A DNA stretch of 9,631 nucleotides from IMG/VR virus record IMGVR_UViG_2737471845_000027; one strand, given 5' to 3'. The stretch's first letter is position 1; the number at the start of each line of letters is the position of its first letter. The position numbers and the translations under genes are program-made. Below are positions 268 through 9,218 of this stretch, in pieces. The notes under the pieces were generated by a model. The model was not told the DNA's origin. It saw nothing but the letters and a program-made list of their open reading frames with translations, and ran no database searches. This stretch comes from a virus (Duplodnaviria > Heunggongvirae > Uroviricota > Caudoviricetes).

Positions 268-477
268 TTACCGTCTGGGGGGGAATACATCGTCAAGTCC
301 ACAATGAGCGCCAAGCCGATTAAGGGTAGAAACAATTTTTCTGCACTCCTCTAGCCCAGGGGTACGAAAATTTGCTTCGTAATTTGCCAGTCGGCTTTGT
401 ATCCACCCTAACTGAACAGCGAGTTGTCTTTGAGACAGCCCAAGCTGTTTTCGATATGTTGAAATTTTGTTCATCAT
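268..477 (-). CDS. ydaS: Cro-like HTH (XRE family) regulator, YdaS-like
   Basis: 69-aa track ORF with an HTH signature (LGLSQRQLAVQLGWIQSRLANYE). AGGAGG at complement 480..485 favours the second ATG (474) as start. Divergent from the repressor gene and immediately upstream of ydaT. Confidence 0.75.
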   Translation of the reverse strand: MMNKISTYRKQLGLSQRQLAVQLGWIQSRLANYEANFRTPGLEECRKIVSTLNRLGAHCGLDDVFPPRR

Positions 478-571: not shown

Positions 572-961
572 ATGAAAACCATTGCAGAACAAATAGGCGA
601 GCGACTAAAAGCCACTCGCCTAAATCGAGGATTAAGTATGGGAAACTTGGCAAAACTATGTGGTTGGTCAGGTTCTTCTCGTATTGCTAACTACGAAGCT
701 GGCACCAGGAGTGTGGGGGCTGAGGATGCGATCATCCTCGGCCAAGCACTAGGCATTTCCCCCGCAGAATTAATGTTCGGTGAACAGGAAAACACTTACT
801 CGTGGTTAAATGATAACCAGAAAAAAATGCTAGAACTGTTTAATCAGCTCCCAGGATCGGAACAAGCACGCATGATTGATCTGTTCGAAATCCGTCTTCA
901 AGAGCTTGATGAGTATGTGGAAAAATATCTAAGAAGCAGGCAACAGAAAAAATCCTCCTAA
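572..961 (+). CDS. racR: Prophage immunity repressor, HTH XRE family, no S24 peptidase domain (RacR-like)
   Basis: Track ORF 467..961; the first 35 codons overlap the operator-rich intergenic DNA, so I place the start at ATG 572 (MKTIAEQIGERLKATRL...). HTH at about residues 20-60. Start is uncertain. Confidence 0.8.
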   Translation: MKTIAEQIGERLKATRLNRGLSMGNLAKLCGWSGSSRIANYEAGTRSVGAEDAIILGQALGISPAELMFGEQENTYSWLNDNQKKMLELFNQLPGSEQARMIDLFEIRLQELDEYVEKYLRSRQQKKSS

Positions 962-990
962 GCCTTTAATCTCCCTCGATTCCAATCAAA

Positions 991-1021
991 AGGCTCTCGC
1001 TATTAGCGAGGGCTTTTTTTT
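991..1021 (+). terminator. Rho-independent terminator downstream of racR
   Basis: GC-rich hairpin ggctctcgc-tatta-gcgagggc followed by a run of nine T (1013..1021). Confidence 0.7.
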
Positions 1022-1047: not shown

Positions 1048-1090
1048 TGCTCACATATTGAGTTGACAATTCACTCACGATGTGTGAGCA
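1048..1090. promoter_or_regulatory. Operator-like inverted repeat enclosing a TTGACA -35 hexamer, upstream of ydaF-ydaG
   Basis: Perfect 8-bp inverted repeat tgctcaca (1048..1055) / tgtgagca (1083..1090). TTGACA at 1063..1068. Inner site ctcacgatgtgtgag (1074..1088) fits TCAC-N5-GTGA. Confidence 0.35.
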
Positions 1091-1272
1091 TTTGTCATAT
1101 CCAAACAACGCCCCACCAGAGAACGGCAGGACAATACCTCGAGTTATCCAGCCACTGAACAGGGCTAAGTAGCCAGCCTGAGGCATACGAACATGACGGC
1201 AGTTGTTGATTGATACAAAGCGCAGTAGATAAAACGTTCCGCCACCCGGCGTTAAGGGGAAATGAGGTCAAC

Positions 1273-1428
1273 ATGGATACTATCGATCTTGGCAACAACG
1301 AATTTCTGGTATGTGGCGTGTTTCCCAATCAGGACGGCACATTCACCGCCATGACGTATACCAAAAGCAAAACGTTTAAAACCGAAGCTGGCGCACGTCG
1401 CTGGTTGGAAAGAAATTCAGGTGAGTGA
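1273..1428 (+). CDS. ydaF: Small Rac-prophage protein, 51 aa (YdaF-like)
   Basis: Internal ATG of track ORF 1210..1428 preceded by GAGGT (1265..1269). Product MDTIDLGNNEFLVCGVFPNQDGTFTAMTYTKSKTFKTEAGARRWLERNSGE. The ydaF versus ydaG name is assigned by size and could be swapped. Confidence 0.7.
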   Translation: MDTIDLGNNEFLVCGVFPNQDGTFTAMTYTKSKTFKTEAGARRWLERNSGE

Positions 1429-1429
1429 T

Positions 1430-1558
1430 ATGGATTTCGACACAGTCATGGAAAAGGCTTACGAAGAATACTTCGAAGGCCTTGCCGAAGGCGAAGAAGC
1501 TCTCAGCTTCAGCGAATTTAAACAGGCGCTTTCCAGTTCGGCAAAAGCTAACAACTGA
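1430..1558 (+). CDS. ydaG: Small acidic Rac-prophage protein, 42 aa (YdaG-like)
   Basis: ATG at 1430 lies 1 nt after the ydaF stop, suggesting translational coupling. Product MDFDTVMEKAYEEYFEGLAEGEEALSFSEFKQALSSSAKANN. Too short for the ORF track; the overlapping 86-aa track ORF 1425..1685 is in a different frame. Confidence 0.65.
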   Translation: MDFDTVMEKAYEEYFEGLAEGEEALSFSEFKQALSSSAKANN

Positions 1559-1650: not shown

Positions 1651-2184
1651 TCACTCAATCTCACCGCTATAGGCATTCCATCTGAGCATGAGGGCACGCC
1701 AGAAAATATCGTTTATGTGCAAAACGCAGTATGGATTTTCGTCGGGAAGGAGTTGCCCTTCCATGGGGAGCAAAATATTAGCAGATACCAGTTTTTTTAT
1801 ATCAGAATCATTGCGTACAGCATGGATCACAGGATAGTTCCTCGATAATGCCGTAATAAGAATTTTTTTCTGACCCGCAGTCAAGGAATCGATAACTGCA
1901 TTGATATGACTGATTATTTTTTGTTCTCTTGTATTGTTCCGGTGACTTCGCCAGATCTTACGAAGAAATAAAGCTAAACGTTGGAGATTTATAGCCAGCA
2001 CAAAAGAAAAGGCAAAAACGAATACCGGGTAAATATAAGGAATGCTGATTTTGTCTTGAACATACTCCGGCACAGAATCAGGCATAAAGAGCAATATCAA
2101 AACAAAGATAATAAGCATATACATAAGGCGCTCTAAGGGTTCGTTACTGAATAACTTGCTCAACAAGCCGAATACATCAGGCAT
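1651..2184 (-). CDS. sieB: Superinfection exclusion protein B (membrane protein)
   Basis: 177-aa track ORF with a hydrophobic N-terminal region (MLIIFVLILLFM...VFVFAFSFVLAINL) that I recognise as SieB. Opposite strand to the early-left operon. Start could be an internal Met (residue 21 or 23). Confidence 0.85.
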   Translation of the reverse strand: MPDVFGLLSKLFSNEPLERLMYMLIIFVLILLFMPDSVPEYVQDKISIPYIYPVFVFAFSFVLAINLQRLALFLRKIWRSHRNNTREQKIISHINAVIDSLTAGQKKILITALSRNYPVIHAVRNDSDIKKLVSANILLPMEGQLLPDENPYCVLHINDIFWRALMLRWNAYSGEIE

Positions 2185-2719
2185 ATTAATAACTCTCTAC
2201 TGTAAGGGTATTAAAATGCTATCACAAACTCTCGCTGTAGGGGTATAGCCGAGACCACCGAGCCTGAAGTGGTAAAAAGACAGGCACACAACACGAAAGC
2301 GCACGGCGAGGCTGTTAGTTCATAAATGGTCTGTCGTTAAATTTACGTCGACCGTGCGCTTCCGGTTGTGGCACTCCGCGAAATGGCGCGGTGGTAAGTA
2401 TGGCGGGGTTATTCATTCCCAGTTGAGGACACCGGGTTGTCAGGTTGACCATACGCTTAAGTGACAACCCCGCTGCAACGCCCTCTGTTATCAATTTTTT
2501 GGTGACGTTTGGCGGTATCAGTTTTACTCCGTGACTGCCCTGCCGCCCCTTTTTAAAGTGAATTTTGTGATGTGGTGAATGCGGCTAAGCGCACGCGGAA
2601 CAGTTAAAAGCATCAGTGTTATGGGTGGATTATCCGGCGTTAATTGTTAACTGGTTAACGTCACCTGGAGGCACCAGGCACCGCATCAACAAAGTTCATT
2701 TGTAAAAATGGAGATAATT
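2185..2719. promoter_or_regulatory. 535-bp non-coding region between divergent sieB and kilR (pL-equivalent position)
   Basis: No ORF longer than about 33 codons on either strand. GC-rich core at roughly 2280..2600. 9-bp inverted repeat gggttgtca (2434..2442) / tgacaaccc (2462..2470). Weak stem then ccccttttt at 2511..2554. Candidate sieB promoter on the minus strand near 2200..2240. Confidence 0.4.
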
Positions 2720-2941
2720 ATGATTGCACATCACTTCGGAACTGATGAAATACCACGTCAGTGTGTGACTCCTGGTGATTATGTTCTTCATGAAGGCCGG
2801 ACATATATCGCCTCGGCAAACAATATTAAAAAGCGAAAACTTTATATTCGTAACCTGACTACAAAAACATGCATTTCTGACTGCATGATTAAAGTCTTCC
2901 TCGGTCGTGATGGTTTACCTGTAAAGGCGGAGTCATGGTGA
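2720..2941 (+). CDS. kilR: KilR, Rac prophage killing protein (cell division inhibitor)
   Basis: Track ORF 2708..2941; GGAG at 2710..2713 is 6 nt before ATG 2720. 73-aa product [16 protein letters not shown]... recognised as KilR. Confidence 0.85.
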
Positions 2942-3111
2942 TGACTAAGAAAATAAAATGTGCTTACCACCTTTGCAATAAAGGAATTGAAGAAAGCAAA
3001 AGCATTAAAAGACCACTTCATTTCATGCGTGGAGTTATCCCAACGACGGAAATGAAAAAATATTGTAGTGAAAATTGTGCCGAAAAAGACCAGATGGCAC
3101 ACGAACTTTAA
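2941..3111 (+). CDS. ydaE: YdaE-like small Cys-rich protein, 56 aa
   Basis: ATG 2941 overlaps the kilR stop (TGATG). Product [56 protein letters not shown] with two Cys pairs. Too short for the ORF track. Confidence 0.75.
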   Translation: MTKKIKCAYHLCNKGIEESKSIKRPLHFMRGVIPTTEMKKYCSENCAEKDQMAHEL

Positions 3112-3557: not shown

Positions 3558-6209
3558 ATGAGCACAAAACCACTCTTCCTTTTACGGAAAGCGAAAAAAT
3601 CATCCGGTGAACCTGACGTCGTCCTGTGGGCAAGCGACGATTTTGAATCAACCTGTGCCACTCTGGACTACCTGATCGTTAAGTCAGGTAAAAAACTGAG
3701 CAACTATTTTAAAGCTGTTGCCACAAATTTTCCTGTCGTTAATGACCTTCCCCCTGAAGGTGAGATCGATTTTACCTGGAGTGAACGCTATCAACTCAGC
3801 AAAGACTCCATGACCTGGGAACTAAAACCGGGAGCAGCGCCAGACGACGTTCACCATCAGGAGGATGCACCGGAAACCGAAGAACCGACGGGAGGCCAGG
3901 AAGAAAACGCGCAGGCAGACGCCCACGAGGATTGCCAGGATTGCGAAGTCTCTGTAGCCACTTTGCGGTTCACACAGCGTCTTCTGCACATTTTTACGTA
4001 TGCAGCCGGGGATCGAAAATACCTGCATCATGCCACCCGTGAACAACGCAAACACATTACTGCTCTTGAGATGGATCAGGAAAACAGCTATGTCCAGAAT
4101 CTGCTGTTGGCCATACGCAGCATGGCAGAACCGACAACTCTGGATAATGCCGCCCTGCTCCGCCTGACTGATGCAATTAAGGCAGTGTTCTCTATCACGA
4201 AAAAACATCAGCCCTATGAATTTAAGAATTTCATTTCAGCCTGGCTGGATACCGAACACATTGATCGCGGTCTTCTGACAAAGGAATGGCGAAAAGGGAA
4301 TCGTGTTTCACGCATCACTCGCACGGCTTCCGGTGCTAATGCTGGCGGCGGGAACCTCACCGATCGCGGCGAAGGTTTCGTCCACGATCTGACGTCACTG
4401 GCGCGCGATGTAGCCACTGGCGTACTGGCCCGTTCAATGGACGTGGACATCTATAACCTTCATCCGGCACACGCTAAACGCATTGAGGAAATTATCGCTG
4501 AAAATAAACCACCCTTTTCTGTTTTCCGCGACAAATTCATCACCATGCCTGGCGGGCTGGATTATTCCCGCGCCATCGTGGTTGCGTCCGTGAAAGAAGC
4601 ACCAATTGGGATCGAGGTCATCCCCGCACACGTCACTGAATATCTGAACAAAGTACTGACTGAAACCGATCATGCCAACCCTGATCCGGAAATCGTGGAT
4701 ATTGCCTGCGGTCGCTCCTCGGCCCCGATGCCGCAGCGAGTAACAGAAGAAGGAAAACAGGACGATGAAGAAAAACCACAACCATCTGGCGCAATGGCAG
4801 ATGAACAGGCAACGGCTGAAACAGTGGAACCGAATGCAACTGAACATCATCAGAACACGCAGCCGCTGGATGCTCAGTCACAGGTAAATTCTGTTGATGC
4901 GAAATATCAGGAACTGCGGGCAGAACTCCATGAAGCCCGGAAAAACATTCCATCAAAAAATCCTGTCGATGCCGATAAATTGCTTGCTGCATCACGTGGT
5001 GAATTTGTTGACGGAATTAGCGACCCGAACGATCCGAAATGGGTTAAGGGGATCCAGACTCGCGATTCTGTGTACCAGAACCAGCCAGAAACGGAAAAAA
5101 TCAGCCCGGATGCGAAACAACCTGAGCCAGTAGTGCAACAGGAACCGGAAATAGTCTGCAATGCCTGCGGTCAGACTGGCGGGGATAACTGCCCTGACTG
5201 TGGTGCGGTGATGGGCGACGCAACATACCAGGAAACATTCGGTGAAGAGAATCAGGTTGAAGCTAAGGAAAAAGATCCGGAGGAAATGGAAGGCGCTGAA
5301 CATCCGCACAATGAGAATGCTGGCAGCGATCCGCATCGCGATTGCAGTGATGAAACTGGCGAAGTCGCAGATCCCGTAATCGTAGAAGACATAGAGCCAG
5401 GTATTTATTACGGAATTTCGAATGAGAATTACCACGCGGGTCCCGGTGTCAGTAAGTCTCAGCTCGATGACATTGCTGATACTCCGGCACTGTATTTGTG
5501 GCGTAAAAATGCCCCCGTGGACACTACAAAGACAAAAACGCTCGATTTAGGAACCGCTTTCCACTGCCGGGTACTTGAACCGGAAGAATTCAGTAACCGC
5601 TTTATCGTAGCACCTGAATTTAACCGCCGTACAAACGCCGGAAAAGAAGAAGAGAAAGCGTTTCTGATGGAATGCGCAAGCACAGGAAAAACGGTTATCA
5701 CTGCGGAAGAAGGCCGGAAAATTGAACTCATGTATCAAAGCGTTATGGCTTTGCCGCTGGGGCAATGGCTTGTTGAAAGCGCCGGACACGCTGAATCATC
5801 AATTTACTGGGAAGATCCGGAAACAGGAATTTTGTGTCGGTGCCGTCCGGACAAAATTATTCCTGAATTTCACTGGATCATGGACGTGAAAACCACAGCG
5901 GATATTCAACGATTCAAAACGGCTTATTACGACTACCGCTATCACGTTCAGGATGCATTCTACAGTGACGGTTATGAAGCACAGTTTGGTGTGCAACCAA
6001 CTTTCGTTTTTCTGGTTGCCAGCACAACTGTTGAATGCGGACGTTATCCGGTTGAGATTTTCATGATGGGCGAAGAAGCAAAACTGGCAGGCCAGCAGGA
6101 ATATCACCGCAATCTGCGGACCCTGGCTGACTGCCTAAATACCGATGAATGGCCAGCTATTAAGACGTTATCACTGCCCCGCTGGGCTAAGGAGTATGCA
6201 AATGACTAA
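3558..6209 (+). CDS. recE: Exodeoxyribonuclease VIII (RecE)
   Basis: 883-aa ORF with GAGGT RBS. N-terminus [26 protein letters not shown] and C-terminal nuclease region ([13 protein letters not shown]...) recognised as RecE. Internal Cys4 motif [15 protein letters not shown]. Confidence 0.95.
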
Positions 6210-7035
6210 GCAACCACCTATCGCAAAAGCCGATCTGCAAAAAACTCAGGGAAACCGTGCACCAGCAGCAGTTAACGATAAGGATGTGCTGTGCGTGATT
6301 AACAGCCCGGCAATGAAAGCGCAACTGGCAGCAGCTCTGCCACGTCACATGACAGCGGAACGCATGATCCGCATTGCTACAACAGAAATCCGTAAAGTAC
6401 CGGAACTAAGAAACTGTGACTCGACGAGTTTTATCGGTGCCATCGTACAGTGTTCACAGCTCGGACTTGAGCCAGGTAGCGCCCTCGGTCATGCATATCT
6501 GCTACCGTTCGGCAACGGAAAAGCAAAAAACGGTAAGAAGAACGTACAGCTGATCATCGGTTATCGCGGCATGATCGACCTTGCCCGTCGATCAGGTCAA
6601 ATCATCAGTCTGTCAGCTCGTGTTGTCCGTGAATGTGATGAATTCAGCTATGAACTTGGCCTTGATGAAAAACTGGTTCATCGTCCCGGTGAAAACGAAG
6701 ATGCCCCTATAACCCATGTCTATGCTGTTGCAAAACTGAAAGACGGAGGAGTGCAGTTTGAAGTCATGACCCGCAAACAGGTAGAAAAAGTTCGCGACAC
6801 ACACAGCAAGGCGGCAAAAAACGCAGCGTCAAAAGGGGCGTCGTCCATCTGGGATGAACACTTTGAAGACATGGCCAAAAAGACAGTGATACGAAAACTG
6901 TTCAAGTATCTGCCGGTATCTATTGAAATCCAGCGTGCAGTATCGATGGATGGAAAAGAGGTGGAAACAATTAATCCAGACGACATATCGGTTATAGCCG
7001 GGGAATACAGTGTAATCGATAATCCAGAAGAATAA
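6202..7035 (+). CDS. recT: Recombinase RecT (single-strand annealing protein)
   Basis: Track ORF 6145..7035; true start taken as ATG 6202 ([23 protein letters not shown]...) with AAGGAG at 6188..6193. Overlaps the recE stop by 8 nt. Confidence 0.9.
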
Positions 7036-7079
7036 TCCAGCCTGGCGGTGTAATGCACCGCCAACGTGAGATAGTTTTT

Positions 7080-7286
7080 ATGACAAAAACTTTGAGATAT
7101 GACGATGTTAAACCATGTCCGTTTTGTGGTTGTCCATCAGTAACGGTGAAAGACATTTCAGGATATTACCGGGCAAAATGCAACGGATGCGAATCCCGAA
7201 CTGGCTATGGTGGAAGTGAAAAAGAAGCGCTCGAAAGATGGAATAAACGAACCACTGAAAATATTAATGGAGGCGTTCATGTATAA
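7080..7286 (+). CDS. ralR: RalR / Lar (restriction alleviation protein; type I toxin DNase)
   Basis: Internal ATG of track ORF 7053..7286. 68-aa product MTKTLRYDDVKPCPFCGCPSVTVKDISGYYRAKCNGCESRTGYGG... with two Cys pairs, recognised as RalR. Confidence 0.85.
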   Translation: MTKTLRYDDVKPCPFCGCPSVTVKDISGYYRAKCNGCESRTGYGGSEKEALERWNKRTTENINGGVHV

Positions 7287-7467
7287 AATTACCGCTACAA
7301 TTGAAAAGGAAGGTGGCACTCCTACTAACTGGACAAGATATTCAAAATCTAAACTAACGAAATCAGAATGCGAAAAAATGCTCTCAGGTAAAAAAGAAGC
7401 AGGCGTTTCCAGAGAGCAGAAAGTAAAACTGATAAATTTTAATTGCGAGAAACTTCTGTCCTCGTGA
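7279..7467 (+). CDS. ydaC: YdaC-like small protein
   Basis: Track ORF 7207..7467; GGAGG at 7270..7274 is 4 nt before ATG 7279 (MYKITATIEKEGGTPTNWTRYSKSK...). Overlaps the ralR stop by 8 nt. Start could instead be ATG 7267. Confidence 0.65.
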   Translation: MYKITATIEKEGGTPTNWTRYSKSKLTKSECEKMLSGKKEAGVSREQKVKLINFNCEKLLSS

Positions 7468-9015: not shown

Positions 9016-9028
9016 TTTAAATACAATT

Positions 9029-9131
9029 AAAAAGAGACCGAATACGATTCCTGTATTCGGTCCAGGGAAATGGCTCTTGGGAGAGAGCCGTGCGCTAAAA
9101 GTTGGCATTAATGCAGGCTTAGTTGCCTTGC
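9029..9131 (-). ncRNA. sdsR: SdsR (RyeB) sigma-S-dependent small RNA
   Basis: Minus strand reads GCAAGGCAACTAAGCCTGCATTAATGCCAACTTTTAGCGCACGGCTCTCTCCCAAGAGCCATTTCCCTGGACCGAATACAGGAATCGTATTCGGTCTCTTTTT, which I recognise as SdsR. 3' terminator hairpin spans 9036..9062, followed by a T-run. Confidence 0.8.
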
Positions 9132-9134
9132 CCT

Positions 9135-9145
9135 TTAAGAATAGA
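9135..9145 (-). promoter_or_regulatory. Sigma-S-type extended -10 element for sdsR
   Basis: Minus strand TCTATTCTTAA, close to the sigma-S -10 consensus TCTATACTTAA, ending 4 nt before the SdsR 5' end. Confidence 0.55.
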
Positions 9146-9218
9146 TGACGACGCCAGGTTTTCCAGTTTGCGTGCAAAATGGTCAATAAAAAGCGTGGTG
9201 GTCATCAGCTGAAATGTT

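Follow-up and report, generated by a model that had tools for sequence, protein, structure and literature searches.

The stretch of DNA that we analyzed (9,631 nucleotides; hereafter, the window) is, as judged by its sequence, a Rac/Qin-type lambdoid prophage of E. coli, and its right flank matches the yebY/ryeA region of E. coli at 99.9% identity. K-12 Rac was considered as the identity of the window and rejected; none of the complete E. coli genomes covers 80% of positions 400-1700, and the immunity type is found in 10 of 5426 complete E. coli genomes. Our analysis concerns positions 1048-1091, which lie 3' of the immunity repressor gene, on the same strand as that gene and facing the early-left genes. 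The features in and around this site are as follows:

268-477, minus strand: cro-like gene, encoding a 69-aa HTH protein, divergent from the repressor gene
497-558, no strand: OR region: two perfect sites (497-509, 546-558) with a central half-site GTGA (530-533) between them
519-492, minus strand: PR-like promoter, with TTGATC at 519-514 and AATAAT at 497-492
572-961, plus strand: immunity repressor gene, encoding 129 aa with an N-terminal HTH_3/HTH_31 domain
988-1021, plus strand: intrinsic terminator of the repressor gene (14-bp stem, 3-nt loop, 8 U)
1048-1062, no strand: OL2 half-site, tgCTCACa, with TCAC at 1051-1054 and CTCAC at 1050-1054
1063-1068, plus strand: TTGACA, the -35 element of a predicted early-left promoter (PL or dicBp equivalent)
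1074-1088, no strand: OL1, the perfect palindrome CTCAC-gatgt-GTGAG
1083-1091, plus strand: extended -10 element, with TG at 1083-1084 (-15/-14) and GAGCAT at 1086-1091, following a 17-bp spacer
1097-1099, plus strand: predicted transcription start, placed 6-8 nt past T-7
1097-1272, plus strand: leader of the predicted transcript, conserved in sequence
1273-1428, plus strand: ydfA-like gene (DUF1391), first gene of the proposed operon
1430-1558, plus strand: ydfB-like gene, 93% identical to Qin YdfB
1651-2184, minus strand: sieB, antisense inside the proposed operon, between ydfB and DicF
2497-2548, plus strand: DicF sRNA (Rfam score of 71.9 bits, gathering score 48)

A first-pass annotation, made from the letters alone, had called the repressor gene racR and the two small genes downstream ydaF and ydaG, but these names must be changed. 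The 129-aa repressor gave no alignment and has no similarity to K-12 RacR (158 aa); instead, it shares 28% identity with DicA along the full length. The two small genes are a ydfA-like gene and a homologue of Qin YdfB, and the product of the second has no similarity to YdaG. The repressor also has no detectable sequence similarity to lambda CI, a domain search found no S24 peptidase domain in it, and a search of PDB sequences returned generic HTH matches only, with E values of at least 7e-4. We ruled out a DicA equivalent as the repressor, based on the 28% identity, a score of 51.2 bits against the NCBIfam DicA model (cutoff 101), and the absence from the window of the DicA Oc-type motif (TTAGTCATAACTAA). 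The divergent cro-like protein is 50% identical to the repressor across the HTH domain and recognition helix, and is therefore expected at the same operators; it probably uses the same sites, OL1 included.

The operator motif TCAC-N5-GTGA occurs three times in the window (at 497, 546 and 1075), compared to 0.14 occurrences expected from dinucleotide-preserving shuffles, none of 200 of which reached three. All three sites are in the immunity region, two in the interval that separates the repressor gene from the divergent cro-like gene and one at 1075-1087, which agrees with the earlier description of this last sequence as a third site of its type. When up to two mismatches were allowed, we observed no enrichment in the window (49 sites compared to 39 expected); thus, the significance obtained from the window alone is limited to the perfect sites. 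The operator sequence of the unit at 1048-1091 is that of the repressor/cro intergenic region, and the two regions also share a layout. In the PR-like promoter, as in 1063-1091, a perfect site (497-509) sits in the spacer, and 24 bp away, beside the -35 element, is a half-site CTCAC (plus-strand GTGAG, 530-534). The spacings between successive OR sites are 24 and 25 bp.

The repressor gene ends in a strong intrinsic terminator (988-1018, dG -19 kcal/mol, z -6.2), which separates the repressor transcript from the predicted promoter and confirms that the site lies downstream of a repressor terminator, as the first-pass annotation had it. The 8-bp inverted repeat, the TTGACA, the TCAC-N5-GTGA and the gagcat at 17-bp spacing described there were all recovered at the positions given for them. 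OL1 (ctcacgatgtgtgag, spanning 1074-1088, with its TCAC-N5-GTGA core at 1075-1087) covers the promoter from spacer position 7 through -11, and its right half-site TGTGA therefore supplies the TG of the extended -10 as well as G-12 and A-11. The TCAC of OL2 is 24 bp upstream of that of OL1, and the degenerate right half of OL2 adjoins the -35 element, its last base being the first T of TTGACA. Thus, operator sequence overlaps the core promoter elements, with OL1 in the spacer through -11 and OL2 against the -35; OL2, with two mismatches to the full motif, has no statistical support in the window alone. The inverted repeat itself is perfect (tgctcaca at 1048-1055, the left arm, and tgtgagca at 1083-1090 are exact reverse complements), but it is no independent structure, because it consists of the OL2 half-site and the right half of OL1.

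The first-pass annotation had also regarded the promoter as weak for want of a good -10. In fact, GAGCAT, while it fits the consensus at only three of six positions, keeps A-11 and T-7, is preceded by the extended TG, and stands in the register of lambda PL (GGTGATACT). A simple consensus scan called no promoter at 1063-1091, as expected from the three-of-six fit, so that the case for promoter strength rests on the perfect -35 element, the extended -10 TG and analogy. The composite pattern TTGACA-N14-TGnGAnnnT has one match in the window, compared to 0.00 expected. On the minus strand, neither inspection by eye nor the scan found an acceptable hexamer pair at 1048-1091.

To place these elements in a comparative frame, we scanned viral contigs with the repressor and obtained 57 loci, whose repressors have protein identities of 99, 97, 83-84 and 59-63% (the same kind of scan of species-representative genomes yielded one irrelevant locus, at 27% identity). 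Across about 5 kb at each locus, TCAC-N5-GTGA occurs solely upstream of the repressor gene and at the promoter in about 50 of the 57. The upstream pair lies at about -75 and about -26 from the repressor gene, and the central GTGA of OR is retained in every distinct upstream sequence among the relatives listed. Downstream, relatives with repressor identities of 99, 97, 83 and about 60% all have OL1 at this position; the 99% and 83% groups have one site, about 113 bp past the end of the gene, and the 60% group has two, 47 bp apart.

Anchoring on OL1 gave 35 distinct downstream sequences. Invariant in all 35 are the TCAC at -24, TTGAC at -12, TCACG...TGTGA, and G-12, A-11 and T-7. Among the relatives, the -10 hexamers vary (GAGCAT, GAAACT or GACTAT), while the preceding TGT and G-12, A-11 and T-7 are constant; in the 35 sequences, the palindrome center takes seven forms (GATGT, GATAT, ATTGT, GCCAT, GCCGT, GTCAT and GTCGT); the right half of OL2 is not conserved although its TCAC at -24 is; and the flanks of the OL1 unit are largely unalignable between identity groups. 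This pattern is the footprint to be expected if an operator for a dimeric HTH protein were embedded in a promoter.

Three of the loci (L037, L038 and L040) have a changed recognition helix, SRVGNYE compared to SRIANYE, and their operators have changed as well. Their OR sites read ACAC...GTGA and CCAC...GTGG, and their promoter-operator unit, CCACATATTGTGt-TTGACA-taccag-ACACAATATGTGActat, is located 800-1100 bp further downstream of the repressor gene, behind extra genes. Register and extended -10 are unchanged, and the first base of the half-site has gone from T to A or C at OR and OL together. The loci at about 60% identity (L039-L057) have a third perfect operator, OL3, which is 47 bp upstream of OL1 and about 100-115 bp past the repressor gene, and which gives them a lambda-like three-site OL. 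There is no counterpart of OL3 at the equivalent position (about 1026-1040) in the type represented by the window.

Two further observations were made on individual relatives. In L014, a tandem duplication of the repressor terminator and adjacent bases (at about 2920-3000) shifts OL1 to +154 from the end of the gene and leaves the promoter-operator unit unaltered. The record PP818812.1 (H56, Actinobacillus phage vB_Apl-pPE4) has, at 6442-7081, an immunity region that is 97.8% identical to that of the window, and covers about half of the window at 95.6%; its host assignment looks odd for an E. coli Rac-like element.

We also compared the site with prophages of other immunity types, and found that the operator changes with the type of repressor while the position of the promoter is kept; this holds for K-12 Rac, Qin and the altered-helix loci compared to the window. 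In an alignment of five regions, TTGAC and the downstream leader are conserved and the operator bases are swapped. The -10 elements of K-12 Rac (TATAGT), Qin (TAATCT) and lambda (GATACT), compared here, have in common the register at 17 bp.

K-12 Rac resembles the window in prophage family and gene order, and differs in that its repressor, RacR, is unrelated to the one described here and its small genes are ydaG then ydaF, the other order and with a different second gene. RacR recognizes the consensus (T/A)TAGGC-n3-GCCTA(T/A) (PMC9638921). In 8 kb of K-12 Rac we found five matches to this consensus with at most one mismatch, compared to 0.14 expected; three are in the racR-ydaS intergenic region and two flank a TTGACA-17-TATAGT promoter that follows racR and is homologous in position to 1048-1091 (TTAGGCATAGCCTA-TTGACA-atcaat-TAGGCATTACCTA-TAGT). 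From its sequence, this pair of palindromes around a near-consensus promoter is an OL/PL unit. Its location is L002 4631-4668, corresponding to MG1655 1,419,630-1,419,667, on the minus strand relative to the record, between racR and ydaG. In the RacR literature that we searched, operators are described in the racR-ydaS intergenic region only, two of the papers make no mention of ydaG or ydaF, and the RacR regulon is said not to have been characterized in detail (PMC11014345); this second pair of sites thus appears to be undescribed. Lowering of RacR derepresses ydaG, ydaF, kilR, ydaE, racC, recE, recT, ralR, xisR and intR (bioRxiv 10.64898/2026.09.06.749655; PMC11014345). The window itself does not belong to the RacR regulon, as there is no alignment to RacR and the RacR motif has no match in the window at up to one mismatch.

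The downstream genes of the window correspond to those of Qin, in which ydfA (DUF1391), ydfB (93%) and DicF likewise follow the promoter in a homologous operon. Moreover, the repressor is a distant homologue of DicA, and both prophages have two perfect OR sites about 49-50 bp apart and one site in the spacer of the early-left promoter. The DicA Oc sequence is TTGTTAGTCATAACTAACAA (PMC3441716); in Qin, an Oc-type palindrome occupies the 17-bp spacer of TTGACC/TAATCT (TTGACC-gatatg-TTAGTCATGGCTAA-tct), and two further Oc-type copies are in the dicA-dicC intergenic region. The dicBp promoter, upstream of ydfA, is described as PL-like, with operators between dicA and dicBp; deletion of dicA derepresses it 22-fold, and DicF is processed from its transcript, the 5' end of the 190-nt form being at +813/814 (PMC10448788). 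By arithmetic on L061 from these published processing coordinates, we infer that the Qin transcript starts just past the homologous TAATCT. The window differs from Qin in its operator (TCAC-N5-GTGA compared to TTAGTCAT..CTAA), in a leader that is about 100 nt longer, and in having the antisense sieB insert, followed by kilR and recET as in Rac.

According to the published description, the Rac-like prophage CP-933P of O157:H7 likewise has a second promoter with operators that resemble those between its repressor and cro genes. Either PaaR2, which is CI-like, or YdaS, which is Cro-like, represses this promoter, PL933P (with OL1-3), about 100-fold (PMC8630535). As described, its operators, unlike those of the window, are 18-bp palindromes built on GTTTAGTAA, and a toxin-antitoxin pair follows the repressor gene. 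None of the papers cited here on Qin, CP-933P or Rac has the TCAC-N5-GTGA immunity type as its subject.

The correspondence with lambda extends to the placement of individual bases. All six annotated lambda operators fit the TCAC-N5-GTGA skeleton with one or two mismatches (L062 92-152 and 2452-2515), and lambda PL reads TTGACA-taaataccactggcggt-GATACT. In both systems OL1 extends over spacer position 7 through -11, and its GA thus provides the first two bases of the -10 (GGTGATACT in lambda compared to TGTGAGCAT in the window); O1 has the skeleton xCAC-N5-GTGA and the promoter TTGACA-17-GAnnnT; O2, 24 bp upstream, reaches as far as the first T of TTGACA; and the unit stands behind the repressor operon, directed into recombination, kil, xis and int genes. 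The lambda consensus half-site is TATCAC, which is also how the right half of the 546-558 site reads when taken on the complementary strand. There are also clear differences. The repressor, unlike lambda CI, has 129 aa and is without the S24 autocleavage domain, and induction is therefore probably not by RecA-stimulated self-cleavage. The window has one perfect site and one half-site compared to the three full sites of lambda, no N gene or recognizable nutL follows its promoter, and the distance between OL and OR is about 580 bp, as opposed to 2.4 kb in lambda. Since the repressor has no similarity to CI, the resemblance to lambda is one of design, not of demonstrable protein homology.

We considered that 1075-1087 might be an auxiliary operator only, from which repressor loops to OR about 580 bp away and thereby tightens repression of PR and autoregulation, with no functional promoter there and ydfA-ydfB transcribed from elsewhere. 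The -10 hexamer that matches at only half of the consensus positions and the lack of a promoter call in the scan would fit such a role. Long-range looping between OL and OR is known for lambda CI and provides a precedent. Moreover, PaaR2 forms octamers (PMC8630535). We nevertheless think this explanation improbable. TTGAC, TG, G-12, A-11 and T-7, all invariant at the 17-bp register in the 35 relatives, would be needless for looping; K-12 Rac, Qin and lambda each have a promoter of this register at the homologous position, and the one in Qin, dicBp, is active by experiment (PMC10448788); and, because of the strong terminator upstream, there is no other source of transcription for ydfA.

Two other explanations dispense with the operator altogether. 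The 8-bp inverted repeat could form a hairpin in RNA or DNA, acting as a second terminator or processing signal on transcripts that read through from the repressor gene, or as a cruciform; indeed, RNA from 1044-1094 folds at -20.5 kcal/mol (z -4.7), and a terminator scan flagged 1074-1088. However, the fold energy weakens with divergence (83% group, -13.2 kcal/mol; 60% group, -6.5, z -0.6), the half-sites alone staying conserved, and because it is not conserved across relatives we reject the hairpin or terminator reading as very unlikely. The inner 1074-1088 sequence folds at -5.7 kcal/mol (z -0.7), no better than shuffles, and its tail, CATTTGTCAT, is not a U-run; with neither a stable stem nor a U-tract, an intrinsic terminator at 1074-1088 was rejected, the true terminator being that of the repressor gene. 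Furthermore, 1048-1091, which is past that strong terminator and before the predicted start, is probably hardly transcribed, and the outer repeat is self-complementary because it comprises two adjacent copies of a palindromic operator half-site. It could also be argued that a chance palindrome without function lies beside a chance TTGACA, since the motif, with 8 specified bases, is short and its degenerate versions are not enriched. This idea is close to untenable, given three perfect matches against 0.14 and a composite pattern with 0.00 expected. The motif keeps its position and register in relatives whose repressors range from 99% to 60% identity, which effectively refutes the idea, as the relatives are not near-identical copies (their flanks differ and their palindrome centers vary). 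Two known types of site were also rejected as identities for the sequence: a CRP site (TGTGA-N6-TCACA), judged by eye, would have the half-sites in the opposite order, and the sole TGTGA-N6 candidate, at 1083-1098, has a mismatched right half; a YdaT/CII-type box (TTGATT-N6-AATCAA) is absent from 1048-1091.

Thus, 1048-1091 is very probably the early-left promoter-operator unit (PL/OL or dicBp equivalent) of a Rac/Qin-like prophage, controlled by its repressor, and the comparative evidence from relatives, Rac, Qin and lambda, together with the repression measured at this promoter in Qin and CP-933P, supports the earlier suggestion that the small-gene pair has its own promoter, carrying an operator of the immunity repressor in an OL/PL-like arrangement. 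According to this proposal, a sigma-70 promoter (TTGACA, 17-bp spacer, extended TG, GAGCAT) would drive transcription to the right, from about 1097, into ydfA-ydfB. A dimer of the 129-aa HTH repressor would bind the TCAC-N5-GTGA of OL1, which we propose as its primary binding site, and, because OL1 fills the spacer and supplies TG, G-12 and A-11, the bound repressor would exclude RNA polymerase. The OL2 half-site beside the -35 would be weaker and may be bound cooperatively, as with OL1-OL2 of lambda; the cro-like protein, with the repressor's recognition helix, would probably act on the same sites, and OL-OR looping across about 580 bp may occur.

A unit of the PL/OL type is itself already well understood; what is new is the operator specificity. 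The analysis challenges no current concept, but it defines the specificity TCAC-N5-GTGA and the full OR/OL layout for an uncharacterized Rac/Qin-like immunity type, and it offers a natural example of operator swapping on a fixed promoter scaffold. It also predicts that the repressor controls the promoter driving DicF, kil-type division inhibitors and the RecET recombinase; these genes influence the physiology of the host, and their derepression is toxic. More tentatively, the promoter-operator cassette of these prophages might be a conserved scaffold, common to lambda, Rac, Qin and the window, into which unrelated repressors slot their own half-sites, with O1 centered at spacer position 13 and its last bases starting the -10, and O2 24 bp upstream touching the -35; the DicA-like repressor would then have reached the lambda skeleton. 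We consider this generalization rather unlikely, although if it were true, repressor specificity and promoter strength would be coupled through the same bases (TGTGA). Partial cross-recognition with lambda CI or Cro, for instance at the TATCAC half of 546-558, is conceivable.

The operon probably runs on from ydfA-ydfB through DicF, kilR, recET and xis to int. Past DicF, kilR/ydaE-like ORFs, recE (3558-6209), recT and the int-side genes are all on the plus strand. The sieB gene is a superinfection-exclusion gene, and an early transcript of this extent would cross it, in convergent transcription, which makes the reach of the operon less certain. The leader (1097-1272) is conserved across prophages that have unrelated immunity modules and different first downstream genes, in the blocks CAATACCnnGAGTTA, GGCTAAGTAGCCAGCCTGAGGCrTAnGAACATGACGGCAG, GCGCAGCAG and CGTTCCGCC..GGCG. 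The fold of the single sequence does not surpass that of shuffles (z +0.8), and no covarying helix came out of an RNAalifold run on 10 leaders. Rfam gave no family match between 960 and 2490 at E<=1, so that neither the site nor the leader holds a known RNA element. We speculate that the leader has a nut- or put-like role or a role in processing.

Several other elements were noted elsewhere in the window. The sequence CTGATT-ttcatg-AATCAA at 224-241 spans the start codon of a ydaT-like gene (ATG at 234-232, minus strand) and matches the published YdaT box TTGATT-N6-AATCAA (PMC9986795, PMC11879457). The Rfam search also placed STnc100 at 2538-2727 (45 bits, just under the gathering score of 47), the RalA antitoxin sRNA at 7285-7463 on the minus strand (217.6 bits), and the host SraC/RyeA-SdsR/RyeB pair at 9025-9169, at the prophage-chromosome junction by yebY.
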